From Candidatus Eiseniibacteriota bacterium (lineage in GTDB: Bacteria > Eisenbacteria > RBG-16-71-46 > SZUA-252): 64,000 bases of DNA. The stretch covers positions 7,482 through 71,481 of the forward strand of contig DASVDZ010000004.1 of NCBI GenBank assembly GCA_036380835.1. The letters run 5' to 3'. The notes beneath the pieces were generated by a model. It was not told the origin of the DNA. It did no database searches and worked only from the letters and a program-made list of their open reading frames with translations. Shown one piece after another: positions 22,826 to 35,072 of this stretch (position 1 is the first letter of the stretch; every line of letters starts with the position of its first letter). Position numbers and translations under genes: made by a program.

Positions 22826-24009
22826 CGCTCCCCGGCCGGTGCGGCGTCGACCCGAACCTCCGCGCCGCCGCCGCCGAGCGTGTCGGCCGACGGGGGCCGG
22901 ATTCCGAGCGCCACGACCGGGGCCAGCGTGGTCACGAGCGCGTAGATCACGAGGCCGCCGAAGAGACGCGGCGGGAGGTCGTAGCGGTCGCGGGCGATCT
23001 CCGCGAGCACGAGGCAGAAGACCAGCGTCGGCGTCATCGACAGCGCGATCCGAAGCCCGTGGCGGAACGGCTCTCCGAGCGCGATGCGCCGGTGGAGCGT
23101 GACGGTCGCGAGGCGCACCGGGACCGCGACCAGGACGAAGATCGCTCCCACGGCCAGCGCGCGCAGGGTCAGGTCGTGCGTGCGCAGGTGGAGCCCCGCC
23201 GAGAAGAAGTAGAACGGGATGAAGAACGACGCGAAGACCTCGACCGCGTGGAACATCCGGTCGCTTCCGACCGCCGGGTACTGATCGCGGAACCGTCCGG
23301 CGGCCCACCCCACGACGAACGCCCCGACCAGATAGTAGACGCCCAGCGCGCGCGTCGCGTACCCGCACAGGATCGCCATCATGACGAGGAAGGCGAACTC
23401 GGAGCCGGGCGCGGCCGGCGCCACGCCCGCGGCGAAGACGCGAAAGGCGATCGGCAGGATGAAGATCAGCGCCGCCAGGGCCGCGGTCGCGAGGCCGAAC
23501 CGGAGCGGGGACGTGGACTGCGTCACTCCGAAGAGGATCAGGAGCGCCAGGAGCTCCGTCGCGATCGCCTTGGCCTTCACCCACGCGGCCTCGGACTCGG
23601 TCATCCCCGTCGATCGAAGCGTGCTCAGGATGAACCCCGTGGACGGGGTCAGGAGCGCGAGCGAGACGAGGCACGCGGGACGCCAACCGATCTGCGCGAC
23701 CGACATCGCGGCCCACGTGCCGGCCGCGACGAGAACGCTCCGGATCGCGAGATGCTGCAGGAGGACGAAGCGGTCGCGCGCGAGCGCGCGCACGTCCACG
23801 TCGAGCCCCGCCAACAGGAAGAGCGCGATGATCCCGAACGAGGAGAGGAGCGCGATCGTCGTGTCGCCGTGGAAGAGGCCCAGGCCGACCCCCGCCGCCG
23901 CTCCGAGGCCGAGCTCGGTGATGGCGGTCGGGATGCGGAAGCGGAGGATGACCTTGGGGACGACGAAGAGGGCGAAGACGAGGAGGACGTACGTGAGCTC
24001 TCCGCTCAC
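22822..24009 (-). CDS. Cation:proton antiporter (CPA1/CPA2 Na+/H+ exchanger family) membrane protein
   Basis: 395 aa, about 11-12 TM helices, Na_H exchanger-like pattern (LLSSFGIIALFLLAGLDVDVRAL ... VFASFFIPFYFFSAGLHL). Lies 3 nt downstream of crp/fnr on the same strand. Confidence 0.8.
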   Translation of the reverse strand: MSGELTYVLLVFALFVVPKVILRFRIPTAITELGLGAAAGVGLGLFHGDTTIALLSSFGIIALFLLAGLDVDVRALARDRFVLLQHLAIRSVLVAAGTWAAMSVAQIGWRPACLVSLALLTPSTGFILSTLRSTGMTESEAAWVKAKAIATELLALLILFGVTQSTSPLRFGLATAALAALIFILPIAFRVFAAGVAPAAPGSEFAFLVMMAILCGYATRALGVYYLVGAFVVGWAAGRFRDQYPAVGSDRMFHAVEVFASFFIPFYFFSAGLHLRTHDLTLRALAVGAIFVLVAVPVRLATVTLHRRIALGEPFRHGLRIALSMTPTLVFCLVLAEIARDRYDLPPRLFGGLVIYALVTTLAPVVALGIRPPSADTLGGGGAEVRVDAAPAGER

Positions 24010-24012
24010 GAG

Positions 24013-24726
24013 CTACCCGCGCCCCTCGGCGATCTCGCGCAGCCGGTCGAGGGACGGCACCAGGAAGCGGTCGCGTCCGGTGATCACGAGGCGTTCGCGT
24101 CCCCACCGGGAGAGGACCCGGATGGCGGTCTCGACCGTCGTTCCGACGAGGTCGGCGACCTCCTGGCGCGAAAGCTGGATCGGAATCTCGGTTCCGCCCT
24201 TCGCCTCGCGCCCCATGCGTTCGACGAGCGTGAGGAAGAGCTGGGCGATGCGCACGTCGACCTTCTGGCCCCGCATCTCCTGGAGCTTGCGGGTCAGCGA
24301 GACGGTGAGCTTGGTCAGCTCGCGGATGATCGCGCGGGCGAACTCGGGATTGCGGTCGAGCAGTTCGAAGTAGTCGCGCCGCGGAACCCAAAGGAGCGTG
24401 ACGGCCTCCAGGCAGATGGCGCTGGCCGGGTAGGGCATGTAGTTGTAGACGGCGATCGCGCCGACCGGCTCGCCTTCCTCGAACAGCTCGAGGATCACGT
24501 CCCCCGCGTCCCCGTGGGAGACGATCTTCACCCGCCCCTTGACGATCAGGGTGAGCGACTCGGCGGGGTCGCCGGCGCGCCAGAGGTAGTCGCCGCGCGC
24601 GTACTCGCGGATCGCCGCGAGCGCGGCGAGGCGCCGCTGGTCTTCCGGCGAGAGCCCTCGGAAGAGCGGGATCGCGCGCACCGCCCCGAGCACTCGATCG
24701 TCCCGAAGCTCCGCCGTCATGGGCAC
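24013..24726 (-). CDS. Crp/Fnr-family transcriptional regulator (cNMP-binding domain + C-terminal HTH); candidate NnrR/Dnr-like regulator of the adjacent nos cluster
   Basis: 237 aa. cNMP-binding beta-roll (YLWRAGDPAESLTLIVKGRVKIV ... GEPVGAIAV) and HTH (LSRQEVADLVGTTVETAIRVLSRW). No N-terminal Cys cluster, so not an FNR-type Fe-S sensor. Confidence 0.9.
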   Translation of the reverse strand: MPMTAELRDDRVLGAVRAIPLFRGLSPEDQRRLAALAAIREYARGDYLWRAGDPAESLTLIVKGRVKIVSHGDAGDVILELFEEGEPVGAIAVYNYMPYPASAICLEAVTLLWVPRRDYFELLDRNPEFARAIIRELTKLTVSLTRKLQEMRGQKVDVRIAQLFLTLVERMGREAKGGTEIPIQLSRQEVADLVGTTVETAIRVLSRWGRERLVITGRDRFLVPSLDRLREIAEGRG

Positions 24727-24743
24727 CGCCCCTCCGCGGCCGT

Positions 24744-24757
24744 ATGACGGCCGTCAT
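24744..24757. promoter_or_regulatory. Perfect 14-bp palindrome ATGACGGCCGTCAT (FNR/Dnr-type TGAC-N4-GTCA box)
   Basis: It is its own reverse complement. It lies 18-31 nt upstream of the crp/fnr ATG (24726), in the divergent intergenic region shared with the hemerythrin-cytc-nosZ operon. Confidence 0.6.
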
Positions 24758-24839
24758 GGTCCTTTGGTCTACCTCTCCCTATCTCCGTTCACTTCTATCA
24801 CTTTCAGCGGGATCGCGGCAGCCGAAATGTGATCGCGGC

Positions 24840-24853
24840 GTGACGCCGGTCAT
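24840..24853. promoter_or_regulatory. Second FNR/Dnr-type box GTGACGCCGGTCAT (TGAC-N4-GTCA half-sites)
   Basis: Palindromic half-sites TGAC/GTCA with a 4-nt spacer, about 84-97 nt upstream of the hemerythrin-like ATG (24937). This spacing suits a class-II activator site for the nos operon promoter. Confidence 0.55.
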
Positions 24854-24936
24854 GCCGCCGGGATCCGATTCCGCCGAAACTCCTTCGTGACGGCAATGCA
24901 GACGGGAGTTCATGAACCACACGGAGGACGAACGAG

Positions 24937-25467
24937 ATGGACGCCGACAGCCTGATCGAGAGGATCAAGAGCGATCACCGGCGCGTGCTTGCCGAGGTCT
25001 CGAGGCTGGAGTCGCTCCTCGCCCGCGGCGGGGCCACGCGCCCGGCGCCTCAGGCGAAGCTCGACGCGCTCGTCCGGATGCTCGAGCGCGAGTTCGGAAC
25101 CCACATGGCGGCCGAGGACGAGGCGCTCTACCCGGCGGTCGTCGCGGTGGTTCCCGCGGCCAAGGGAAGCGTCGAGCCGCTCCACGATGAGCACGCCGAG
25201 CTTCGCGCGATGCTCGAGCGGCTCCGCGAGACGATGGGCGAGCCGGGAGGCGCCGAGCGCGACGAACAGGTCACCGTCCAGGTGGCCGACCTGGCGGCGC
25301 TCCTCCGGATCCACATCCGAAAGGAGGAGTCGCTCGTCCTGAGCGTCGCGGCGCGGCTCCTCAGACCTCAAGACATCGACGCGATCGTGAAGCGAATGCA
25401 CCCGGAGCGCTCCGGCGAGGGCGCCCGGCCCACCACCACGGCACCCACGAAAGGGGACGCACGATGA
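24937..25467 (+). CDS. Hemerythrin-like (HHE cation-binding) domain protein, first gene of the nos operon
   Basis: 176 aa. Repeated His/Glu motifs characteristic of hemerythrin-like di-iron domains (SDHRRVLAEV, THMAAEDEALYP, LHDEHAEL, IHIRKEE). RBS GGAGGA before the ATG. The stop overlaps the cytochrome c ATG (ATGA). Confidence 0.75.
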   Translation: MDADSLIERIKSDHRRVLAEVSRLESLLARGGATRPAPQAKLDALVRMLEREFGTHMAAEDEALYPAVVAVVPAAKGSVEPLHDEHAELRAMLERLRETMGEPGGAERDEQVTVQVADLAALLRIHIRKEESLVLSVAARLLRPQDIDAIVKRMHPERSGEGARPTTTAPTKGDAR

Positions 25468-25937
25468 AGCGCATGTTGATCCGGGCCGCGATCCTGATCC
25501 TGGCGGCGGCGGCCTGGGGATGCGGAGGCGGCAAGTCGACGGACACGAAGGGGGCCGCCGGCGGCGCCGCCGTCTCTCCCTACGACAACGGGCCGCGCGC
25601 GGCCGATTCCCCGGTCGCGGTGGCGCTCGCCGAGAAGGGAGCGGGCCTTTTCAAGGCCAAGGGCTGCACCGCGTGCCACGCGTACGGCAAGCGCCTGACC
25701 GGTCCCGACCTGAAGGGCGTGACGCACCGGCGGACGGCCGACTGGATGGAACATCAGATCCTGCACCCGGAGATCATGACCAAGGAGGATCCCATCTCGC
25801 GTCAGCTCCTCGCCACGTACGCCGTGCAGATGTCGAACCAGGGACTCACGCCCGACGAGGCCAAGTCGGTCATCGAATACCTGAAGAAGCTGGACGAGGA
25901 GACGGACGAAAAGGAAGGGACGCAGGCCCAGAAGTGA
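25464..25937 (+). CDS. Monoheme c-type cytochrome, secreted (NosC-like candidate electron donor to NosZ)
   Basis: 157 aa, signal peptide, single CxxCH (KGCTACHAY). Lies immediately upstream of nosZ; a diverged paralog sits at 34028..34576. Confidence 0.85.
   Translation: MKRMLIRAAILILAAAAWGCGGGKSTDTKGAAGGAAVSPYDNGPRAADSPVAVALAEKGAGLFKAKGCTACHAYGKRLTGPDLKGVTHRRTADWMEHQILHPEIMTKEDPISRQLLATYAVQMSNQGLTPDEAKSVIEYLKKLDEETDEKEGTQAQK
25870..25898 (+). repeat. 29-nt exact repeat (copy 1) within the paralogous cytochrome c genes flanking the nos cluster
   Basis: gtcatcgaatacctgaagaagctggacga is identical at 25870..25898 and 34436..34464. The surrounding ~300 nt are diverged paralogous sequence (direct repeats about 8.5 kb apart). 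Confidence 0.8.
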
Positions 25938-25966
25938 GCCCCGCCCATACCAGAGGAGGAACAGTC

Positions 25967-27862
25967 ATGAAGCGTTGGATCGGTCTCAGCCTCGCGTTCG
26001 CGGTCGCGCTCGTCGCCGCGGCGCTCGTGGGAGGGTGCGGCGGCGGTCGCGGGTCGAACGCGGCGCTCAAGACGTACGTGAAGCCCGGAGAGCACGACAC
26101 GCACTACGCGTTCCTCTCCGGGGGCCACTCCGGGCAGGTGTTCGTGTACGGCCTTCCGTCCTGCCGCTACATCACCACGATCCCCGTGTTCACCCCGGAG
26201 CCCGCCAAGGGCTACGGCATCGACGAGGAGTCGAAGGCGATGCTCAAGGGCTTCACCTGGGGCGACGCGCACCACCCGGGCCTCTCCGAGACGAACGGCG
26301 ACTACGACGGACGCTGGCTCTTCATCAACGACATGCCGAACGCGCGAATCGCGCGGATCGACCTGAGCGACTTCACGACCCGCGAGATCTTCGGGCCGAT
26401 CCCGAACGTCTCCGCGGCGCACGCGTGCCCCTTCCCGACCCCGAACACCGAATACGTCTTCGCCGCGTCGCGATTCTCGATCCCTCTCCCCTTCCCCAGC
26501 GTGGCCAAGGTCGAGGACTACCAGACCAAGTTCAAGGGGATCGTGGCCGGCGTGAAGGTGAGCCCGGAAGGCCACATGTCGCTCGGATTCGAGATCCTGA
26601 CGCCGCCGTTCGACTGGGACCTCTCCGACGCCGGCAAGGGACCGAGCGAGGGGTGGCAATTCTTCACCTGCTACAACAGCGAAGAGGCCCACGACTCGCT
26701 GGAGATCAAGGCCTCCCAGAACGAGATGGACTACTTCCTCGCGGTGAACTGGCGTGAGGCGCAGAAGGCGAGCGACGCGGGCAAGGGTCACATGCTCGGG
26801 GGCGTGCCGGTCCTGACGCCGTCGGAGAACAAGGGAATCTGCTACCTGGTCCCGGTTCCGAAGAGCCCGCACGGCGTCGACGTCACGCCGAGCGGCGAGT
26901 TCATCTGCTGCTCCGGTAAGCTCCAGGCCGAAGTGACCGTCTACAACTTCAAGAAGATGATGGACGCCATCCAGGCCGGGAAGTTCGAGAAGGAGGTCGA
27001 GGGAATCCCGGTGATCGCCTTCCAGGACGTGATGGAGGCAAGGGTTCCGGTCGGTCTCGGCCCGCTCCACACGCAGTTCGACAACAAGGGCTACGCCTAC
27101 ACGTCCCTCTTCCTCGACTCGCAGATCGCGAAATGGAAGGTCGGTCCGCCGTGGAACGTGGTGGACAAGATCGACGTCTACTACTCGATCGGCCACCTCG
27201 CCGCTTCGGGGGGCGACACGCGCCACCCGACGGGCGAATACCTGCTCGCGCTCGACAAGCTCTCGAAGGACCGCTACCTGCCGGTCGGACCGTCCCACCC
27301 CGAGGCGACGCAGCTGATCGACATCCGGGGCTCGAAGATGGAGCTCCTCTACGACTTCCCGACGTATCCCGAGCCGCACTACGCGCAGATCATCGAGGCG
27401 AGCAAGCTCAAGCCGCTCAAGATCTACTCGCTCGCCGACAACAAGAACCCCGACGCGGTCAAGTCGGCCGACCAGACGCGCGTGGAGCGCCACGGCCGGC
27501 GGGTCGACGCCTACATGCTGACGATCCGCACGCACTTCACGCCCGACATCATCCGCGTGGCGCAGGGCGACACGATCTACTTCCACGTCACCAACCTGGA
27601 GCAGGACGAGGACATCACGCACGGCTTCGGGATCACCTTCTCGAGCAAGGACATGCAGGTCGAGCCCGGCGAGACGAAGACGATGCGGTGGGTGGCCGAG
27701 CGGGCCGGCATCCAGCCCTTCTACTGCTCCAATTTCTGCAGCGCGCTTCACCAGGAGATGCAGGGATACATCGAGGTGAATCCGCCGGGGACGAAGCTGG
27801 CCCAGGTGGCCCGGCCGAGTCCCGAGGAGATCGCGGAAGTCACCGCGCTCCTTCGGCGGTGA
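25967..27862 (+). CDS. nosZ: Nitrous-oxide reductase NosZ, clade II (Sec/lipoprotein-type signal)
   Basis: 631 aa. RBS GAGGAGGA. Signal MKRWIGLSLAFAVALVAAALVGGC without a twin-arginine motif. CuZ-site region (WGDAHHPGLSETNGDYDGRWLFINDMPNARIARIDL) and C-terminal CuA cupredoxin motif (HGFGI ... FYCSNFCSALHQEMQG). Confidence 0.97.
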   Translation: MKRWIGLSLAFAVALVAAALVGGCGGGRGSNAALKTYVKPGEHDTHYAFLSGGHSGQVFVYGLPSCRYITTIPVFTPEPAKGYGIDEESKAMLKGFTWGDAHHPGLSETNGDYDGRWLFINDMPNARIARIDLSDFTTREIFGPIPNVSAAHACPFPTPNTEYVFAASRFSIPLPFPSVAKVEDYQTKFKGIVAGVKVSPEGHMSLGFEILTPPFDWDLSDAGKGPSEGWQFFTCYNSEEAHDSLEIKASQNEMDYFLAVNWREAQKASDAGKGHMLGGVPVLTPSENKGICYLVPVPKSPHGVDVTPSGEFICCSGKLQAEVTVYNFKKMMDAIQAGKFEKEVEGIPVIAFQDVMEARVPVGLGPLHTQFDNKGYAYTSLFLDSQIAKWKVGPPWNVVDKIDVYYSIGHLAASGGDTRHPTGEYLLALDKLSKDRYLPVGPSHPEATQLIDIRGSKMELLYDFPTYPEPHYAQIIEASKLKPLKIYSLADNKNPDAVKSADQTRVERHGRRVDAYMLTIRTHFTPDIIRVAQGDTIYFHVTNLEQDEDITHGFGITFSSKDMQVEPGETKTMRWVAERAGIQPFYCSNFCSALHQEMQGYIEVNPPGTKLAQVARPSPEEIAEVTALLRR

Positions 27863-27874
27863 TCGCAGGGCGGC

Positions 27875-27898
27875 GGGGCCGGGCCCGTGTCCGGCCCC
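27875..27898 (+). terminator. GC-rich stem-loop immediately after nosZ (possible attenuator/partial terminator)
   Basis: GGGGCCGG-gcccgtgt-CCGGCCCC, 8-bp perfect stem, 12 nt after the nosZ stop, followed by a C/T-rich tract (ccgtcccttccccc). There is no classic U-tract. Confidence 0.35.
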
Positions 27899-27926
27899 CC
27901 GTCCCTTCCCCCACGGGAGGTTTGGA

Positions 27927-28544
27927 ATGGTCACGTACCTGAACGGCGCGTTCGCGACGAAAGAGCGGAGGCTCGTTCTCCTGGCCGCGCTGGTGCTGCT
28001 CCCGGTCTTCTTCCTCCCCGTGCTCCACGTCTGGGAGATGCGACTCTGGGCGCCGCAGTACCCCGAGGGCCTCCGGCTCACGATCTACTCGAACACCATC
28101 CGGGGCGACCTCGACAAGATCAACCTGCTGAACCACTACGTCGGGATGCATCCGATCACGCCGGCCGACTTCGCGGAGTTCCATTACCTGCCGCAGCTCC
28201 TGACCGGATTCGGCGTCCTGGCCCTCCTCGCGGCGCTCCTCAACCGGCGGTGGATCGCGGTCCTCGGGTGGCTCCTCTTCACCGGATTCGCGGTCTACAT
28301 GTTCCGGGACTACGCCCTGTGGCTCTGGCGCTACGGGCACGACCTCGATCCCCGCGCGGCGCTCAAGCTCCCCACCTTCTCGCCCCCCCTGATCGGGTTC
28401 GCGCGCATGGCGAACTTCCGGGTCCTGAGCCTCCCCGGTCCGGGCACGCTCCTCCTCGGCGTCGCCTGGCTCCTCGGTCCGATCGCGCTCTGGCTCGAAC
28501 GGCGCCACGGGAAGCGCGCTCCCGCGGCGGCCGACCGCCCTTGA
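27927..28544 (+). CDS. nosB: NosB-like integral membrane protein (clade-II nos cluster-specific)
   Basis: 205 aa, about 4-6 TM helices. Its position directly after nosZ and before nosD is diagnostic of clade-II clusters. Confidence 0.75.
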   Translation: MVTYLNGAFATKERRLVLLAALVLLPVFFLPVLHVWEMRLWAPQYPEGLRLTIYSNTIRGDLDKINLLNHYVGMHPITPADFAEFHYLPQLLTGFGVLALLAALLNRRWIAVLGWLLFTGFAVYMFRDYALWLWRYGHDLDPRAALKLPTFSPPLIGFARMANFRVLSLPGPGTLLLGVAWLLGPIALWLERRHGKRAPAAADRP

Positions 28545-29986
28545 TGATGTCCGAGCGGCGCGGCCGTCCGTTCCTGGCCGGGCTCCTCCTCGCCGCGGCG
28601 CTCGCCGCCGGCGGCGCCGGCTCGGCCAGCGCCGCGCGACGGGAGATCCCGGCTCGCGGAGACGCCGCCGAGACCGCGATCCTCGAAGCGGCCGACGGCG
28701 ACACCCTCCTGCTCGGCGCCGGCGTCCACCGCGGCCCGCTGATCCTCTCGCGCCGTCTCCTCCTCCGGGGAGCTCCGGGCGCGGTGCTCGACGGCGGCGG
28801 CGCCGGGACCGTGCTCACGGTGGCGGCCGCTGGCGCCGCGGTCGAATCGCTGACCATCCGGGGGAGCGGGAACGGCGCGCTGACGCTCGACGCGGGGGTC
28901 CACGTCGTCTCCGCCCGGGGCGTCCGGCTCCGCGGCCTTCGCGTGGTCGACGTCCTCTACGGGATCGCCGGGGAGCGCGCCGACTCGCTCGTGATCGAAG
29001 GCTGCGACCTGACCGGCCGCGTCCATCCCTCCGTCGACGTGACCCCCGAGATGAACGAAGCCGCGGGCAACGGCGTCCACCTCTGGTACTGTCGGGACGT
29101 CGCCGTCCGGCGCGTCGCGGAACGGCGCTTCATGGACGGAGTCTATCTCTCGTTCGTCGACCGGATCGTGGTCGAGGACGGACGCTTCTCGCGGAACGGC
29201 CGCTACGGGCTCCACACGATGTACTGTCAGGACAATCGCCTCGCCCGGAACCGCTTCCAGTTCAACCTCGCGGGCTGCGCGATCATGTTCTCGAACCATC
29301 TCGAGCTCTCCCGGAACGACTTCGTGCACAACCGCGGACCGCGCACGTACGGCGTCCTCCTCCGGGATTGCTCCGACGGCCACTTCCTCGAGAACCGCAT
29401 GGTCGACAACACCGTCGCCGTCTTCATGGACAACTCGAACCGGAACGTGATCCGGCGGAATCTCGTGCAGGACAACGGCTGGGGCGTGATCCTCTTCTCC
29501 TCCTGCGCCGGAAACGAATTCGCGGAGAACGACTTCGTCAACGACGACTACCCCGTGGCCCTCGACATGCGCTACTCGGACAACCGGTTCGACGACGGGC
29601 GTCGCGGCAACTACTGGAGCGGGAACGCCCCCTACGACCTGGACGGCGACGGCGCGAGCGACGTACCGTACTCGCCCGTGAGCGCCTTCGCGTTCCTCTC
29701 GAAGCGGTATCCCGACCTCGCGATCCTCGCCCAGAGCCCCGCCGCGAACGCCCTCACGATGGCGGAGCGGACCATCCCCGCGCTTCGGCCGAGCCAGATC
29801 GTCGACCGGTTCCCGCTCGTCGCGCCCGCCCCCGTCGGCGCGGGCGCCGGTGGCTCGCGAGGAACGCGCGCCGCCGGGGACGAGGCGCCGGGGGCTCGGC
29901 GCGGTTCGTTCCCCACCGCGGCCGCCTTCCTCCTCCTGGCCGCCGCGGGACTCAGGGGCGTCGCCTCGCGAGGGGGCCCGCGGTGA
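28544..29986 (+). CDS. nosD: NosD, periplasmic right-handed beta-helix (CASH-domain) copper-processing protein
   Basis: Start ATG 28544 overlaps the nosB stop (TGATG). Signal peptide, parallel beta-helix repeats (NRFQFNLAGCAIMFSNHLELSRNDFVHN ... NRNVIRRNLVQDNGWGVILFSS ... NEFAENDFVNDDYPVALD). The track ORF start at 27887 is rejected. Confidence 0.9.
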   Translation: MMSERRGRPFLAGLLLAAALAAGGAGSASAARREIPARGDAAETAILEAADGDTLLLGAGVHRGPLILSRRLLLRGAPGAVLDGGGAGTVLTVAAAGAAVESLTIRGSGNGALTLDAGVHVVSARGVRLRGLRVVDVLYGIAGERADSLVIEGCDLTGRVHPSVDVTPEMNEAAGNGVHLWYCRDVAVRRVAERRFMDGVYLSFVDRIVVEDGRFSRNGRYGLHTMYCQDNRLARNRFQFNLAGCAIMFSNHLELSRNDFVHNRGPRTYGVLLRDCSDGHFLENRMVDNTVAVFMDNSNRNVIRRNLVQDNGWGVILFSSCAGNEFAENDFVNDDYPVALDMRYSDNRFDDGRRGNYWSGNAPYDLDGDGASDVPYSPVSAFAFLSKRYPDLAILAQSPAANALTMAERTIPALRPSQIVDRFPLVAPAPVGAGAGGSRGTRAAGDEAPGARRGSFPTAAAFLLLAAAGLRGVASRGGPR

Positions 29987-30948
29987 TCCGGGTCGAAGGG
30001 CTCGTGAAGCGCTTCGGCGGGGTCACCGCCGTGGACGGACTCACCTTCGAGGTCGAGCGGGGCGAGACGTTCGCCGTGATCGGTCCGAACGGCGCCGGGA
30101 AGACGACCACGCTCAAGCTCATCCTCGGGCTCGCGCGCCCGGACGCGGGCTCGATCGCGATCGGCCCGCGCTCGCTTTCGCCCCTGGGTCCGGAGGCACG
30201 CCGCGATCTCGGCTACGTGCCGCAGAAGGTCGAGTTCCCGCCGGGGCGAACCGCGGCGCAGGTGCTCTCCTTCTTCGCCTCGCTCCGGGCCCTTTCCGAG
30301 CCGGCGGTCGAGCGCGCGCTCGGGCGGGTCGGCATGGCCGATCTGGCGAACCGCCGCGCGAGCGAGCTGTCGGGCGGATACGCGCAGCGGCTCTCCTTGG
30401 CCCAGGCGCTGCTCGCCGACCCGGCGCTCCTCGTGCTCGACGAGCCGACGGCGAGCCTCGACCCGGAAGCCACGTGGGAATTCAGGACCCTGGTCGAGCA
30501 GCTTCGCCGCGAGGGAAAGACGATCCTCCTCTGCTCGCACCTCCTGAGCGAGGTGGAGCGCGTGGCCGACCGGGTGCTCATCCTGAACGAGGGGCGGCGC
30601 GCGGCGCTCGAGTCGCTCTCCAGCCTGAGAGAGCGCCAGGCGTCGAGCACGCGGCTCGCGATCGAGACGCGGGGCGAGGCGGCGTCCGCGGCCGCGGCGC
30701 TCGCCCGCCGGGGCATCGCCTCGGCGCCGATCGACGCGACCCGCCTCACGGTGGACGGAAGCGACGGCCGCGGCGTCGCGGCGCTCGAGGCGCTCCGCGA
30801 GGACGCCGTGGCCGTCCGCTCGTTCGAGCTGGTCCGCCCGTCGCTCGAGGAGATCTTCCTCGCCGTGATCCGCCGCGAGCGCGGCGTCGCGGCGCGGGCG
30901 GCCGCGGGCTCTGCCCCGGACGCCGGGGGAAACGGCGATGGGCGCTGA
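29983..30948 (+). CDS. nosF: NosF, ABC transporter ATP-binding protein
   Basis: GTG start at 29983 overlapping the nosD stop (GTGA). Walker A GPNGAGKTT, signature LSGGYAQRLSLAQAL, Walker B LLVLDEPTASLD. Confidence 0.9.
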   Translation: MIRVEGLVKRFGGVTAVDGLTFEVERGETFAVIGPNGAGKTTTLKLILGLARPDAGSIAIGPRSLSPLGPEARRDLGYVPQKVEFPPGRTAAQVLSFFASLRALSEPAVERALGRVGMADLANRRASELSGGYAQRLSLAQALLADPALLVLDEPTASLDPEATWEFRTLVEQLRREGKTILLCSHLLSEVERVADRVLILNEGRRAALESLSSLRERQASSTRLAIETRGEAASAAAALARRGIASAPIDATRLTVDGSDGRGVAALEALREDAVAVRSFELVRPSLEEIFLAVIRRERGVAARAAAGSAPDAGGNGDGR

Positions 30949-31426
30949 CCGCCGCGGCCCGTCCGCGCTTCGGACCGCGGCCCGCGCCGCCGCCCGCGCC
31001 GCGGCGGTCCTCGTCCCGCTCGCGCTCGCGGGCTCGTTGCCCGGCTGTGTTCGCGCGCCGGAGAGCGGCGCGCCCCGCGTCGCCCTCGGAACGCCGTGCG
31101 CGACCTGCGGCATGGAGGTGCGCGACCTCCGATACGCCTGCGCCTCGCGCCGCGGCGGGACCGTGCGCGTCTACGATTCCATCGAGTGCGCCCTGAGGGG
31201 GGGCGCGGAATCGGCCGCCGCCGTCTACGTCGCCGATTTCGACACCGGAGGGCTCCACGCGGCCGACTCCCTCTGGGTCGTCCGCGCCGACCTTCCGACG
31301 CCGATGGGAGGCGGGTACGTCGCGTTCCTCGATCGCCGGCCCGCCGACCGCGTCGCCGCCGCCCGCGCCGGACGCGTCGGGCGGCTTCGCGACTTCCTCG
31401 CCGAAACGCCGGACGCGCGGCGATGA
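30938..31426 (+). CDS. nosL: NosL, copper-binding lipoprotein (Cu chaperone for NosZ maturation)
   Basis: 162 aa. Lipobox-like LAGSLPGC. NosL Cu-binding motif GTPCATCGMEV (CxxCGM) and the conserved PMGGGYVAF segment. Overlaps the nosF end by 11 nt. Confidence 0.8.
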   Translation: MGADRRGPSALRTAARAAARAAAVLVPLALAGSLPGCVRAPESGAPRVALGTPCATCGMEVRDLRYACASRRGGTVRVYDSIECALRGGAESAAAVYVADFDTGGLHAADSLWVVRADLPTPMGGGYVAFLDRRPADRVAAARAGRVGRLRDFLAETPDARR

Positions 31427-31839
31427 CGCGCTCCTACCGGATCCTCGCGCTCGCGCTCGTCCTCCTCGCCGCCTGGCTCGTCGTCGCGGTCCGAGCCCCT
31501 CGGCGTCCGGCCACGCCGCCGGAACGGGCCTCGGGCGCGCCGCGCGCCGCGACGATCGACCTCGTGGTCGGCGGCGGAGCGGTACGCCCCGAGAGGACGG
31601 CCGTCCCCAAGGGGGCGAACGTCTCCGTGACCGCCGTGAACCAGGACCGCGTGGCCCGCACGATCTCTCTCCTCGGCTACGAGGACCGGATCGCCACGAC
31701 CCGAATCGGCCCCGGCGACACGATCCGGCTCCGATTCGCCGCCGACCGGCCCGGCGAGGACTTCGCCTGGCTCGTCGACGGACGCCCCGCCGGCACGCTC
31801 GCCGTCACCGGCTCGCATCTCGTGGAGGGGCATCGGTGA
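31423..31839 (+). CDS. Small membrane-anchored/periplasmic protein with cupredoxin-like beta-sandwich character, between nosL and nosY (function unknown)
   Basis: 138 aa. ATG overlaps the nosL stop (ATGA) and the stop overlaps the nosY GTG (GTGA), so it is translationally coupled. N-terminal TM/signal ILALALVLLAAWLVVAV. No Cys and no obvious Cu-ligand set. The longer track ORF from 31096 is rejected. Confidence 0.6.
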   Translation: MTRSYRILALALVLLAAWLVVAVRAPRRPATPPERASGAPRAATIDLVVGGGAVRPERTAVPKGANVSVTAVNQDRVARTISLLGYEDRIATTRIGPGDTIRLRFAADRPGEDFAWLVDGRPAGTLAVTGSHLVEGHR

Positions 31840-32681
31840 GCGCGCCCTCGCAAGGACGTGGCCGCCGCGTCCTCGTCATCGCCCGCGAGGAGTACCGCCG
31901 CGCGCTCGAGACGCGGTGGCTCTTCGCCTTCACCGCGCTCTTCGCGCTCCTCGTGCTCGGCCTCTCCTATTTCGGCCTCGCCCAGAGCCAGGAGATCGGT
32001 TTCCAGGGATTCTCCCGCGTCACGCTGAGCCTCATGAACCTCGTCCTCTTCGTCGTGCCGCTGACCGGGCTCACGCTCGGCGTCGGGAGCATCGCGGGCG
32101 GCGCCGAGACGCTCCCGCTCCTCCTCGCGCAGCCGGTCTCGCGCGGAGAGGTGCTCGCCGGCAAGTACCTGGGCCTCGCCGCGGCCCTCACGGCGGCGCA
32201 GGCGCTCGGCTTCGGCGTCGGCGGCGTGGTCGTGGCGCTCCAGGCGGGGCCCGACCAGATCGAGGGATTCGTCACCCTGACGCTCCTGTCGTTCGTACTC
32301 GGCTGGCTCACGCTCTCCGCCGCCATCTGCATCGCCTCGCTCCTCGCCGACCGCGTGAAGGCGCTCTCGGCGGCGCTCCTCCTCTGGCTCCTCCTCGTCG
32401 TCGCGTACGACCTGGCGGTGCTCGGGGCGACGGCGCTCCTCCAGGGGGTGCCCCTCCAAGCCATCCTCTTCCCCGCGCTCCTCCTGAACCCGGTCGATCT
32501 CGCCCGCGTGATGATCACGCTCGCGGTCGGATCGGGAGCGCTCTTCGGCCCCACGTCGGCCGTCCTGGTCAAGCTCCTCGGCGGTCCCCTCGGGGTAGCG
32601 CTCGGGCTCGTGACGCTCGCGATCGAGACGGCGGCGCCGCTCGTGATCGCGGCGCGCGTCTTCCGGAAACGGGACTGGTGA
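31836..32681 (+). CDS. nosY: NosY, ABC-2 type permease
   Basis: 281 aa. GTG start overlapping the upstream stop. Six predicted TM helices typical of ABC-2 permeases partnered with NosF. Confidence 0.85.
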   Translation: MSAPSQGRGRRVLVIAREEYRRALETRWLFAFTALFALLVLGLSYFGLAQSQEIGFQGFSRVTLSLMNLVLFVVPLTGLTLGVGSIAGGAETLPLLLAQPVSRGEVLAGKYLGLAAALTAAQALGFGVGGVVVALQAGPDQIEGFVTLTLLSFVLGWLTLSAAICIASLLADRVKALSAALLLWLLLVVAYDLAVLGATALLQGVPLQAILFPALLLNPVDLARVMITLAVGSGALFGPTSAVLVKLLGGPLGVALGLVTLAIETAAPLVIAARVFRKRDW

Positions 32682-32685
32682 ACCC

Positions 32686-33942
32686 ATGGAGGTGAGGATC
32701 CCGCTCCAGGAGGGAGCGCGCCCGCCCGCGCCGCCGGCGGCGGGGGGCGAGGCCAAGCGAGCGCCCGGCAGTCCGGCCGAACCGCCCGACCCCTACCGCA
32801 TCCTCTTCCCGATGGGCGTGGCCTACGGGATCGCCGGCGCGGCGCTCTGGCCGCTTCACGCGCTGGGCCTCATCCCGTACCCCGCCCAGCTTCACTGGAC
32901 CCTGATGGCGCAGGGGTTCCAGCATTGCTTCATTCTCGGCTTCTTATTGACCGCCATGCCGTCGTTCATGCATGCCGAACACTGTCGCCGTTCGGAGCTC
33001 GTGATCGCGGTCGTCGCGATGGCGGGGTTCGGCGTCGCGGCCGTCCTAGGATGGGCGGCGGCGACCCAGGCGTGTTATCTGGCGACGCTCGCGCTGATCG
33101 TCGCGATGGCCTTCCGCCGGCGCCGGCAGGGGGCCGCCTCGCCGCCGGTCGAGTTCTCGCTCGTCGCGTTCGGGATCGCCCTCGGCGCCGTGGGATCGGC
33201 GATGATCGGAGGCGCCGCGCTCGGCCTCTTCGACGAGCCGGCGCCGCGCCTCGGGATCCGTCTCGTCTGGATGGGCATGATCCTCTCCGCGGTGCTCGGC
33301 GTCGGCGGCCTGCTCGTGCCGACGTTCAGCGCCATGCGCGAGCCGCTCGAGATCCCCGGCATCGCCCGGCCGCACGAGCGGCGGCCCCGGCGGATCCTCT
33401 ACGGCGTCGTGGCCCTCCTCCTCCTCTGCTCGCTGATTCTCGAGGGGGCGGGCCACGCCGCCCTCGGCGCCATCCTGAGGGCGGCCACCGCCAGCGGCGT
33501 GCTGCTCCTCGTCTGGAAGCTGTTCCGAAGGCCGGGGCGAGCCGACCTGCTCTCCTACGCGATCTGGGCCGCCGGGTGGTCGATCTTCGCCGGTCTCTGG
33601 CTGATGGCGTTCTTCCCGTCGCACCCCCTGCTCGGCGCGCACTTCGTCCTGATCGGGGGATTCGGGCTCCTCTCGGCGGGGATCGGAACGCGGGTCGTGG
33701 TGCGGCACGGCGGCCATCCGCTTCCCGAGGAGGGGCGCGTCCTGCGCCCGGCGGTGATCGCGCTCCTCGCGGCGACGCTCGCCGCGCGGGCGGCGGGCGA
33801 GCTGGCTCCTGGCCCTCGTCTCACGCTCCTCGCCGCGAGCGCGCTCGCGTGGATCGCCGCGTGGACCGTCTGGGCGGTCGGGGCGGCGCCGCGAATCCGG
33901 CGCCGCCGCGCGCCGCGCGCGGACGCGCCGCGGACCGCGTGA
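32686..33942 (+). CDS. nnrS: NnrS-family heme-copper membrane protein (NO-response)
   Basis: 418 aa, about 12 TM helices. The NnrS hallmark HWTLMAQGFQHCFILGFLLTAMPSFMHAEH (GFLLTA) plus conserved His positions. Starts 4 nt after nosY. Confidence 0.75.
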   Translation: MEVRIPLQEGARPPAPPAAGGEAKRAPGSPAEPPDPYRILFPMGVAYGIAGAALWPLHALGLIPYPAQLHWTLMAQGFQHCFILGFLLTAMPSFMHAEHCRRSELVIAVVAMAGFGVAAVLGWAAATQACYLATLALIVAMAFRRRRQGAASPPVEFSLVAFGIALGAVGSAMIGGAALGLFDEPAPRLGIRLVWMGMILSAVLGVGGLLVPTFSAMREPLEIPGIARPHERRPRRILYGVVALLLLCSLILEGAGHAALGAILRAATASGVLLLVWKLFRRPGRADLLSYAIWAAGWSIFAGLWLMAFFPSHPLLGAHFVLIGGFGLLSAGIGTRVVVRHGGHPLPEEGRVLRPAVIALLAATLAARAAGELAPGPRLTLLAASALAWIAAWTVWAVGAAPRIRRRRAPRADAPRTA

Positions 33943-33961
33943 CGCGAACGCCCCGATCCGG

Positions 33962-34020
33962 TATAATGAGCGTATCGTTGTAGGTTTCCGCGCATCTCAG
34001 AAGGGTTTCCCCACGGAAAC
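33962..34020 (+). promoter_or_regulatory. Promoter-like element (perfect TATAAT in GGTATAATG) plus 7-bp inverted repeat GTTTCCG...CGGAAAC in the 5' leader of the second cytochrome c gene
   Basis: TATAAT at 33962..33967 is conspicuous against the GC-rich background. Inverted repeat 33984..33990 / 34014..34020 separated by 23 nt, with the direct repeat GGTTTCC twice. It ends 8 nt before the ATG at 34028. Confidence 0.4.
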
Positions 34021-34027
34021 GAACCGC

Positions 34028-34576
34028 ATGGCGTCGAGACGTCGCTCGGCAATCCTGGTCGCGCTCGCGGCCGCCACCGCTGGCGGCTGCGGATGGTTCC
34101 AATCCCCGAAGACCACCGCCCCCACCCCGGAAGCCGTCGTTTCCGTCTATGACCGCGGCCCGCGGGCCGGCGAGGCGCCCTACATGCCGGTCTGGGCGAT
34201 CAGGGGGGAGTCTCTGTTCGTCCAGAAGGGCTGCAAGGCATGCCACGCCTATGGAGCCCGCCTCACCGGCCCCGACCTGAGGGGCGTCACCCGCCGGCGC
34301 TCCGCCGAGTGGATGGAGCAACAGATCCTCCACCCCGACGTCATGACCAAGGAAGATCCGATCTCGATGGCCCTGTTCGCCGAGTACGTCGCGCAGATGG
34401 CGAATCAAGGGCTCACGCCCGACGAGGCGAAGGACGTCATCGAATACCTGAAGAAGCTGGACGACGGGACGGAGGAGCGGGAAGGGCCGCAGGCCTTCCA
34501 GACCCAGAGCCCTCCGCCCTTCGCCGTTCCCGACTCGTCGGCTCCTCCCGCTACTTCCTCTCCACCGCCTTCTTGA
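34028..34576 (+). CDS. Monoheme c-type cytochrome, paralog of the 25464..25937 gene
   Basis: 182 aa, signal peptide, single CxxCH (KGCKACHAY). About 70% identical over the core to the nosZ-upstream cytochrome, including the identical 29-nt stretch at 34436..34464. Pro/Ser-rich C-terminal tail. Confidence 0.85.
   Translation: MASRRRSAILVALAAATAGGCGWFQSPKTTAPTPEAVVSVYDRGPRAGEAPYMPVWAIRGESLFVQKGCKACHAYGARLTGPDLRGVTRRRSAEWMEQQILHPDVMTKEDPISMALFAEYVAQMANQGLTPDEAKDVIEYLKKLDDGTEEREGPQAFQTQSPPPFAVPDSSAPPATSSPPPS
34436..34464 (+). repeat. 29-nt exact repeat (copy 2), see 25870..25898
   Basis: Identical to 25870..25898. Confidence 0.8.
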
Positions 34577-35072
34577 GCGCCGCCATGGTGGCGGCCATCT
34601 CCCCTTCCATCTTCCCTGCCGTCGCCTGCAGATCCTCCGCCTTGCTCTCGTCCGTGTACTGCTCCACGTACGTGACGTGCGTCATGGCGCCGCTCGGAGA
34701 GAGGAGGAGCTTCGCCTGGCACATGTAGGAGCCGTTCGTCGGCTCGTGCGCGACGCGAAGCTCCTTGCCGCGGTCGAGGTAGGTCACGATCGAGCGGCCC
34801 CCGTTCCCGAACTCGTCGGTGAAATCGAGCACGTCGCCCACCTTGGCGATCGTCACCTTGGCGTTCGACGCGTTCTTCCAGACCGGGCACCAGGTGACGA
34901 GGTTCTTGCCCGCGGTCAGATAGCTCCAGACGGCGACCGGTGGCGCGGCGATGTCCGCTTCCGACGTGAGGCGAACGACCGGGATCTGCTTCCACTCCGC
35001 GGACGCGGTCCCGGCGGACCCCGCGGCGAGGGTGAACGAGGCGAGCACGGCGAGGGCGAAACGGCGCTTCAT
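34551..35072 (-). CDS. Secreted SRPBCC-superfamily (AHSA1/START-like) protein
   Basis: 173 aa, signal peptide MKRRFALAVLASFTLAAGSAGTASA. Alpha/beta-grip-like pattern (WSYLTAGKNLVTWCPVW ... ). The 3' end overlaps the convergent cytochrome c gene by about 26 nt. Confidence 0.65.
   Translation of the reverse strand: MKRRFALAVLASFTLAAGSAGTASAEWKQIPVVRLTSEADIAAPPVAVWSYLTAGKNLVTWCPVWKNASNAKVTIAKVGDVLDFTDEFGNGGRSIVTYLDRGKELRVAHEPTNGSYMCQAKLLLSPSGAMTHVTYVEQYTDESKAEDLQATAGKMEGEMAATMAALKKAVERK

Follow-up and report, generated by a model that had tools for sequence, protein, structure and literature searches.

The nos locus and its two cytochrome c genes

We analysed a 64-kb stretch of the genome of a Candidatus Eiseniibacteriota bacterium (contig DASVDZ010000004.1 of assembly GCA_036380835.1, positions 7,482 to 71,481; 71% GC), hereafter the window, in which a gene cluster for reducing nitrous oxide (N2O), nos, has a gene for a c-type cytochrome at each end. 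The two genes, which we call cytA (25464-25937) and cytB (34028-34576), both lie on the plus strand and enclose nosZ, a gene in the nosB position, nosD, nosF, nosL, a cupredoxin-like gene, nosY and nnrS. An earlier reading of the same DNA, made without database searches (hereafter the sequence-only reading), had described this arrangement, and Pfam and NCBIfam matches together with synteny bear out its gene set, nosZBDFL-X-Y-nnrS, with the nosB-position gene in the place of B and the cupredoxin-like gene as X. It offered two interpretations of the pair: direct repeats through which the whole nos module could be lost or gained, or an ancient duplication giving a second, independently promoted donor. 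Our analysis makes it very probable that cytA and cytB are anciently diverged and separately selected paralogues, and that the DNA repeat they form is not a functional substrate for recombination.

Both genes encode mono-haem cytochromes c, predicted to be of the lipoprotein type. Each product has a single CxxCH haem motif (CTACH in cytA, CKACH in cytB) and exceeds the PF00034 cutoff of 21.3 bits (46.2 bits for cytA, 45.7 bits for cytB); no NCBIfam model reached its cutoff for either. The proteins are 62% identical over 151 amino acids (BLASTP, E=3e-67) and 68% identical over a 109-residue core, which makes the "about 70%" given earlier for the cores a fair estimate. Chance cannot come near to explaining such homology. 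No third paralogue was found in the window. Residues C68, C71, H72, M105 and M123 are invariant in an alignment of 26 family sequences, and either methionine is a candidate axial ligand. A hydrophobic N-terminus followed by a lipobox-like Gly-Cys pair, likewise invariant in these 26 sequences, is present in both proteins; this signal fits a lipoprotein, and an N-terminal lipid anchor is predicted for each. The product of cytB carries in addition a Pro-rich C-terminal tail of 25 amino acids. The net charge of the A and B cores, considered as a hint of different partners, showed no clear difference and was dropped.

Both proteins match the same protein of known structure. A phmmer search matched residues 49-145 of cytA (97 residues) to Protein Data Bank (PDB) entry 3CP5 with E=2.1e-15. 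The AlphaFold2 model of cytB, with a predicted local distance difference test (pLDDT) score of 85, had 3cp5 as its top PDB match, at a root-mean-square deviation of 0.9 A over 93 columns, E=1.5e-6, 33% identity and a template modelling (TM) score of 0.77 relative to the target. The only strong PDB matches of this model were the Rhodothermus marinus cytochrome c structures, 3CP5 (Stelter et al., 2008, PMID 18855424, via PMC3534657) and its engineered variants, the next unrelated cytochrome being at E=0.05. We therefore assign cytA and cytB to the R. marinus cytochrome c type. They share with 3CP5 the single CxxCH, the N-terminal signal with a lipobox-like Gly-Cys, and a GPDL...W...HP stretch resembling that of CcoO/FixO. 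They differ from it in sequence (about 33% identity) and in context, since they belong to a nos cluster and not to an oxygen-reductase/alternative complex III (ACIII) cluster; the product of cytB differs further in its CKACH motif and in its Pro-rich tail, which 3CP5 lacks.

Age and selection of the two copies

Phylogeny places the divergence of the two genes far back. In a neighbour-joining (NJ) tree built on 109 columns from 83 family members, with 500 bootstraps, the clade of cytB orthologues, or B clade, has 100% bootstrap support, and the clade of cytA orthologues from the window, L001 and L008-L010 (A1) has 87%; the window's own A and B copies were sisters in 0 of the 500 replicates. In closeness to cytA, cytB is surpassed by about 90 proteins of other organisms, and a set of cytB orthologues (P0100, P0121-P0124) score at least 260 bits against cytB, compared with 196 bits for cytA. 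Core identities follow the same order: 83% between A orthologues, 78-90% between B orthologues and 68% between A and B. The B clade is further defined by shared derived characters, namely GCGWF after the lipobox cysteine, Y-M-P-x-W, CKACH in place of CTACH, T91S, E103D and a Pro-rich tail ending in ATSxPPPS, and its diagnostic substitutions are fixed.

Ratios of nonsynonymous to synonymous divergence (dN/dS) between orthologues are 0.25-0.29 for cytA and 0.19-0.36 for cytB, all of them upper bounds because synonymous divergence (dS) is saturated. Both copies are under separate purifying selection. The ancient duplication contemplated by the sequence-only reading is supported by the tree and by the conserved position of cytB in other lineages described below. 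Old copies, independently constrained and free of any recombination signal, are also what that reading had named as evidence against its recombination proposal. We considered whether cytB forms one orthologous clade with extra copies called U1 in L008-L010, which are Pro-tailed as well; the grouping has a bootstrap of just 41%, and we did not adopt it.

The DNA repeat and its coding constraint

At the nucleotide level the two genes form an ungapped direct repeat of 270 nucleotides (nt) with 80% identity. Its copies, at 25659-25928 in the coding core of cytA and 34226-34495 in that of cytB, lie on the plus strand with a spacing of 8567 nt, in agreement with the direct orientation and distance of about 8.5 kb reported before. 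Each copy holds a 29-nt exact match, which is the longest exact direct repeat within the window. This match is real and its second copy had been placed correctly (34436-34464), but the first copy lies at 25869-25897, one position off the earlier 25870-25898. The only other exact direct repeat of at least 20 nt in the window is 21 nt long (CCGTCGCCGTCCAGATCGGCG) and occurs at 10018-10038 and 10774-10794, 756 nt apart.

The similarity of the two copies is no higher than their protein sequences and codon usage would produce. The dS between cytA and cytB is 0.83 (Nei-Gojobori), and the GC content at third codon positions (GC3) is 84-90%. Of the 80 residues that are identical, 51 have one codon common to both genes; independent draws under the window's codon usage would give 51.8, so that synonymous sites are saturated. 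When codons were re-drawn 5000 times, an in-register exact run of at least 29 nt arose in 7.3% of cases, and the longest run averaged 19.8 nt. The peptide that the 29-mer specifies, VIEYLKKLD, is a motif conserved throughout the family. Taken together, the 270-nt repeat and its 29-mer appear to be a passive by-product of amino-acid conservation, here VIEYLKKLD, and of a strong GC3 codon bias.

Apparent dS between cytA and cytB declines along the gene: it is about 1.5 at the 5' end and about 0.4 at the 3' end, where the 29-mer lies, and the 29-mer includes a rare GAA codon common to both copies. This is the pattern that a gene conversion tract in the 3' third, or a recent duplication, might leave. 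We rejected conversion after comparing the 3' cores within and between genomes. The A and B copies are 80% identical in nucleotides within the window and 74% within L001, and A and B copies taken from different genomes are equally similar (78-83%). Same-codon counts in the 3' half are also as expected (26 of 34, against 24.1; z=0.8), and orthologue pairs are no more alike in this part of the gene (79-89%). The gradient toward the 3' end is a property of the family.

The nos cluster and its neighbours

The nos genes between the two cytochromes are all on the plus strand. The product of nosZ (25967-27862) is a Sec-dependent clade II enzyme: it scores 851.9 bits on the Sec model TIGR04246 (cutoff 625), against 446 bits on the twin-arginine translocation (TAT) model, and has a nos_propeller Pfam match. 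Directly downstream lies the nosB-position gene (27927-28544), which encodes a putative membrane protein of 205 amino acids. This protein has no Pfam or NCBIfam match. Its conservation is 63-86% among Eisenbacteria nos clusters and 32-43% among those of Gemmatimonadota and Bacteroidota, and in all the loci compared it comes right after nosZ. It is followed by nosD (28523-29986; Pfam NosD), nosF (about 29983-30948; ABC ATPase match), nosL (30938-31426; a weak Pfam NosL match), the cupredoxin-like gene (31426-31839; Cupredoxin_1), nosY (31836-32681; an ABC-2 permease, with ABC2_membrane matched in orthologues) and nnrS (32686-33942; Pfam NnrS). No NCBIfam model reached its cutoff for the nosB-position gene, nosL or the cupredoxin-like gene. 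The last of these encodes 137 amino acids with an N-terminal hydrophobic segment and, while matching no curated family above cutoff, is kept between nosL and nosY in most Eisenbacteria nos loci.

Searches with Pfam and NCBIfam gave no NosR or NosX family match among the cluster's open reading frames, and no nosG or nosH gene turned up in 24013-35072 or in the loci syntenic with it. The cluster thereby combines a Sec-type NosZ and associated c-type cytochrome genes with no nosR/nosX match, as expected of clade II. Cytochrome genes are a characteristic feature of clade II nos clusters (PMC11096178, PMC9697520), and a Sec-type NosZ and nosB are clade II features as well (PMC11096178, PMC9697520, PMC11409646).

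On the left, cytA belongs to an operon that opens with a gene for a hemerythrin-domain protein (24937-25467, plus strand; PF01814, E=4.8e-21), which is syntenic in relatives. The hemerythrin stop and the start of cytA have 4 nt in common, and cytA ends 29 nt ahead of nosZ. A Crp/Fnr-family regulator gene (24013-24726, minus strand), identified by Pfam and NCBIfam matches and syntenic in most Eisenbacteria nos loci, is divergent from this hemerythrin-cytA-nosZ operon. On the right, a gene for an SRPBCC (Polyketide_cyc2) protein (34551-35072, minus strand) is convergent with cytB, and the 3' ends of the two overlap by 26 nt (34551-34576). Lipobox-like signals occur also in NosZ (...ALVGGCGGG, 25967-26040) and NosL (...SLPGC, 30938-31060); with those of both cytochromes, they suggest that the entire periplasmic N2O-reducing set may be membrane-tethered in this organism.

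Gene order in related genomes

We mapped gene order in 85 + 19 loci fetched from public contigs, using tblastn with the proteins of the window as queries. Of about 60 nos loci, drawn from Eisenbacteria, Gemmatimonadota, Bacteroidota and Balneolaceae, almost all have a cytochrome gene directly upstream of nosZ. The whole architecture of the window (Crp on the minus strand, hemerythrin, cytA, nosZ through nnrS, cytB, SRPBCC on the minus strand, MgtC) recurs in a different metagenome-assembled genome (MAG), L001/L017, whose NosZ is 84% identical, and the right half of the architecture is seen again in L003, L086 and L105. The position of cytB is conserved in at least five other lineages.

Other relatives keep nos without a second cytochrome. 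In L011 and L012, nnrS leads straight into MgtC, and in L023 into DUF218; in L087-L089, nnrS is followed by the minus-strand SRPBCC gene across a gap of 17-209 nt, with no cytochrome between. The sequence-only reading had itself said that relatives of this kind, lacking the second copy yet retaining nos, would speak against recombination through the repeats. Elsewhere the family has been expanded at other places. Extra copies lie between the P-type ATPase and Crp genes in L005-L010, L015 and L038, where they form two separate clades: U1, whose members are Pro-tailed, and U2, which is sister to its own cytA (67%). L034 has an extra copy 9 kb upstream (676-1179), and in L108 a divergent CAKCH family member (1-315) stands in tandem directly upstream of cytB. 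The extra copies around Eisenbacteria nos clusters fall in at least three phylogenetically separate groups.

Two nos-less relatives, the metagenomic loci L100 and L096, show what the region looks like when the cluster is missing. In both, an aconitase gene is directly convergent on the SRPBCC gene (1331-1374 in L100 and 426-509 in L096); compared with the window, the aconitases are 76-78% and the SRPBCC proteins 62-63% identical, and the MgtC of L100 is 71% identical. The contig of L096 ends within SRPBCC and hence has no MgtC. Neither locus has the P-type ATPase, the antiporter, Crp, hemerythrin, either cytochrome, the nos genes or nnrS. In the window the aconitase gene (18099-20855) ends at 20855, where the P-type ATPase gene begins. 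The aconitase/SRPBCC junction thus identifies the unit of presence and absence as a block of about 13.7 kb (about 20855-34576) holding the heavy-metal P-type ATPase, a CPA2 antiporter, Crp, hemerythrin, cytA, nos, nnrS and cytB between aconitase and SRPBCC; its borders are not the cytochromes.

The search for the excision scar that recombination between the copies would leave, a nos-less locus with a single cytochrome, found none among relatives in the public contigs: L100 and L096 are nos-less and have no cytochrome at all, and a hemerythrin-cytochrome-SRPBCC order occurs in no mapped locus. Nor are there chimeric proteins, as the 6 of 156 family proteins with any B-clade mark carry all of the marks and none pairs an A-type core with a B-type tail.

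Several of the contigs that we used are probably mis-binned or mis-assigned. We doubt the labels of L001/L017 (JBLMXB010000028, labelled Hyphomicrobiales), L008 (JBLMWD010000133, labelled Bacteroidota), L010 (Omnitrophota) and L026 (Methylomirabilota) because their gene order agrees fully with that of Eisenbacteria nos loci, at 65-86% protein identity.

Candidate promoter and operator sequences

The two genes appear to be controlled differently. In the 85-nt nnrS-cytB spacer lies a sigma-70-like promoter candidate, GTGACG-17-TATAAT (33939-33967, plus strand), found once against 0.0 expected in shuffles. Its TATAAT is the one in the leader that had been seen ahead of the second copy. The -10 element is kept as TAnAnT in all orthologous spacers, which are 85-203 nt long, mostly as an extended -10 with an upstream TGn: TGGTACACT in L003, TGGTAGACT in L004, TGATACACT in L105, TGATACAAT in L108 and TAGAGT in L001. 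A CACGGAAnCGAAG leader ahead of the cytB start codon is conserved in these spacers too. No terminator-like site was found. This conservation argues for the earlier suggestion that the second copy has its own promoter.

A perfect 6-bp inverted repeat in the leader, GTTTCC-N4-GGAAAC before the cytB start, was considered as a hairpin and dropped since it is not conserved in L001. GGTTTCC occurs twice in this region (33982-34021). The hairpin is probably not functional, because of its two halves only the right one (CACGGAAACG) is kept in orthologous leaders.

The hemerythrin-cytA-nosZ operon is preceded by candidate Crp/Fnr boxes, two TGAC-N4-GTCA palindromes at 24745-24756 and 24841-24852, 96 nt apart in the crp-hemerythrin spacer, the proximal one about 90 nt before the hemerythrin start. 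The window holds three such palindromes against 0.5 expected. The pair stands at the same place in L001 (641/737), L008 (9292/9388), L009 (5769/5865), L010, L031 and L048, and single boxes occur in many other loci; it is likely the operator for the divergent Crp/Fnr regulator. No TGAC-N4-GTCA was found upstream of cytB, and we rejected a shared Crp/Fnr-type box ahead of both cytochromes, the paired boxes being confined to the crp-hemerythrin spacer. With boxes only before hemerythrin-cytA-nosZ and a -10 element of its own at cytB, the sequence suggests that cytA is regulated together with nosZ and that cytB is transcribed independently. The third palindrome (34673-34684), about 97 nt past the cytB stop inside the SRPBCC gene, is present also in L003 (3823) and L004 (750). 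It is probably a coding coincidence, because the codons there encode MTHVT.

The C-terminal tail of cytB

The tail of cytB runs into the neighbouring gene. The 3' overlap with the SRPBCC gene is 26 nt in every B-clade locus (L001, L003, L004, L105, L106 and L108), and the last eight codons of cytB (ATSSPPPS*) are antisense to the last eight of SRPBCC (LKKAVERK*); across the B clade, ATSxPPPS faces KKAVE(R/K)K. This antisense overlap accounts for the conservation of the end of the tail. Within the tail there is also a conserved PPPF motif, which owes nothing to the overlap. The tail looks like an extension beyond the A-type stop (...QAQK*) into the adjacent gene.

Discussion

A c-type cytochrome gene beside nosZ is known from clade II (Sec-type) nos clusters of the Fibrobacteres-Chlorobi-Bacteroidetes (FCB) group and of other bacteria outside the Epsilonproteobacteria. 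Melioribacter roseus, of the FCB group, has a gene for a cytochrome c (Mros1103) immediately upstream of nosZ (Mros1104) (PMC3534657), and the window has the same order, with cytA directly upstream of nosZ, then the nosB-position gene and nosDFLY. Such clusters are reported with one cytochrome gene next to nosZ, whereas here the cluster ends, after nnrS, in a diverged second paralogue with a candidate promoter of its own, and in related Eisenbacteria extra copies take other places. We therefore regard cytA as an ordinary member of the known nosZ-adjacent cytochromes, and cytB as a lineage-specific paralogue with some distinctive features. Two mono-haem c-type cytochromes within one clade II nos cluster also recall the NosGH-C1-C2 system of Wolinella succinogenes. 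There, as summarized in later accounts, the mono-haem NosC1 and NosC2 are proposed to pass electrons to NosZ, and NosC2 can be fused to NosB (Hein et al., 2017, via PMC11409646 and PMC11539149). The locus described here has neither nosG nor nosH, and is thus not a Wolinella-type module; it has no NosB fusion either, and cytA and cytB are close paralogues of the R. marinus type. The comparison is one of descriptions, and we claim no homology to NosC1 or NosC2.

The accepted framework has electrons flowing from the bc1 complex through cytochrome c to NosZ, or through NosGH/C1/C2 (PMC11539149). Within it, cytA, the conserved nos-cluster cytochrome that is translationally coupled in the hemerythrin-cytA-nosZ operon behind the Crp/Fnr-type boxes, presumably passes electrons in the periplasm to the CuA site of the clade II NosZ. 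The second gene is a lineage-specific copy, which became fixed between nnrS and the convergent SRPBCC gene in the ancestor shared by the window, L001, L003, L086, L105 and L108. With a constitutive-looking sigma-70-like promoter candidate of its own, substitutions fixed in its haem motif (CKACH for CTACH) and in the N-terminal helix, and a Pro-rich extension, cytB is most likely a sub- or neo-functionalised second carrier that serves, under other regulation, the same N-oxide machinery of the periplasm (NosZ and/or NnrS), which would amount to a division of labour between A and B. That cytB serves NosZ is about an even bet on its position and family, and service to NnrS or to another partner is distinctly less probable; the word donor, applied to cytB and NosZ specifically, should be read with this in mind.

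A more ambitious version of the same idea seems improbable to us. It would make the B clade a new carrier, a second and differently regulated entry of electrons into N2O and nitric oxide (NO) reduction by way of the constitutive promoter, changes to the haem pocket (CKACH, Y-M-P-x-W) and a Pro-rich tail for docking, part of which is overprinted on the SRPBCC antisense strand, in a group that would repeatedly recruit extra copies (B after nnrS, U1/U2 between ATPase and Crp, the L108 tandem). A possible role of such an entry could be N2O scavenging before the Crp/Fnr-controlled operon is induced.

The arrangement of two homologous segments in direct orientation around a functional module is also that of repeat-flanked excisable cassettes, and nos presence does vary among relatives. 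Excision or capture of the nos module by recombination between the cytochrome genes, leaving a single hybrid cytochrome as the scar, could draw further on the length and identity of the repeat and on its 29-nt match. We nevertheless hold this to be very improbable. The repeats are intact, selected genes with saturated synonymous divergence, whose DNA identity does not exceed what protein constraint and codon bias yield. With 20% divergence and a longest identical run of 29 nt, they would be a very poor RecA substrate. The arrangement is stable across lineages whose NosZ differ by 16%, many relatives have nos with one cytochrome, and no scar, chimera, conversion signal or matching breakpoint was found in the public contigs; the nos-less loci are joined at aconitase and SRPBCC, and lack the ATPase, Crp and hemerythrin as well as both cytochromes. 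The proposal that the repeats mediate loss or gain of nos is accordingly one that we abandon. Just as hard to credit is a recent duplication or ongoing gene conversion with the 3' third as the conversion tract: the dS gradient and the shared GAA codon would suit it, and the cross-genome comparisons given above, as well as a tree in which the window's A and B copies never pair, do not.

The other two alternatives concern cytB itself, and we consider both unlikely, if far more credible than recombination or conversion. One is that cytB was acquired from another Eisenbacteria lineage, alone or through relocation of an older copy such as the ATPase-cytochrome-Crp copy of L008-L010, and inserted between nnrS and SRPBCC. 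A B clade that branches outside the cytA group of related genomes, its weak grouping with the Pro-tailed U1, the variety of positions taken by extra copies across lineages (U1, U2, L034, L038, the L108 tandem) and the nnrS-SRPBCC junctions of L087-L089, consistent with the insertion of a single gene, all fit such an origin. Support for any deep placement is low (6-51%), however; a fresh duplicate that evolved faster would yield the same topology, and all close cytB relatives belong to the same phylum-level group. The other is that cytB is unrelated to NosZ function and merely parked beside nos. It might then act for NnrS (an NO-stress protein), for a terminal oxidase or for a different redox enzyme of the periplasm. 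Its candidate promoter, free of Crp/Fnr-type boxes, and its altered haem motif and N-terminal helix would suit a separate role, as would its position, always beside nnrS or another cytochrome and never beside nosZ, and its absence from most nos-bearing relatives. The prototype R. marinus cytochrome, too, reportedly serves an oxygen reductase. Yet every B-clade gene with sampled flanks stands at the nnrS-distal end of a nos cluster, beside nnrS where that gene was sampled, allowing that L108 has a family cytochrome upstream instead and that several contigs are too short to hold a nos gene. The two nos-less relatives have no cytB, and its closest paralogues are all nosZ-adjacent cytochromes.

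Several points weigh against our preferred account of two old, independently selected paralogues. All the sequences come from uncultured MAGs, and the function proposed for cytB follows from its position and family. Neighbour-joining on 109 columns is a modest phylogenetic method, and the deeper nodes have bootstrap values of only 6-51%. Because these nodes are poorly supported, cytB may have arisen by duplication of cytA within the genome, by relocation of the "upstream" copy seen in L008-L010, or by transfer from another Eisenbacteria lineage. A 29-nt match also lies at the lower limit for RecA recombination, the minimal efficient processing segment in Escherichia coli being about 23-27 bp, so very rare deletions between A and B are possible in principle.

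Our results remove a tempting reading of this locus: the nos cluster does not stand ready for excision as a cassette between repeats, and with 71% GC and a strong codon bias in this genome the DNA "repeat" adds no information over protein homology. The real unit of presence and absence for N2O reduction among these relatives is the 13.7-kb block that begins with the P-type ATPase and ends with nnrS/cytB. Our results also document, in an uncultured phylum that has clade II nosZ, a Rhodothermus-type cytochrome beside nosZ in almost all loci, with second copies added several times at different positions. If cytB is indeed a separately regulated donor, this would bear, as an incremental point, on how electron supply to NosZ is tuned in non-denitrifying N2O reducers.

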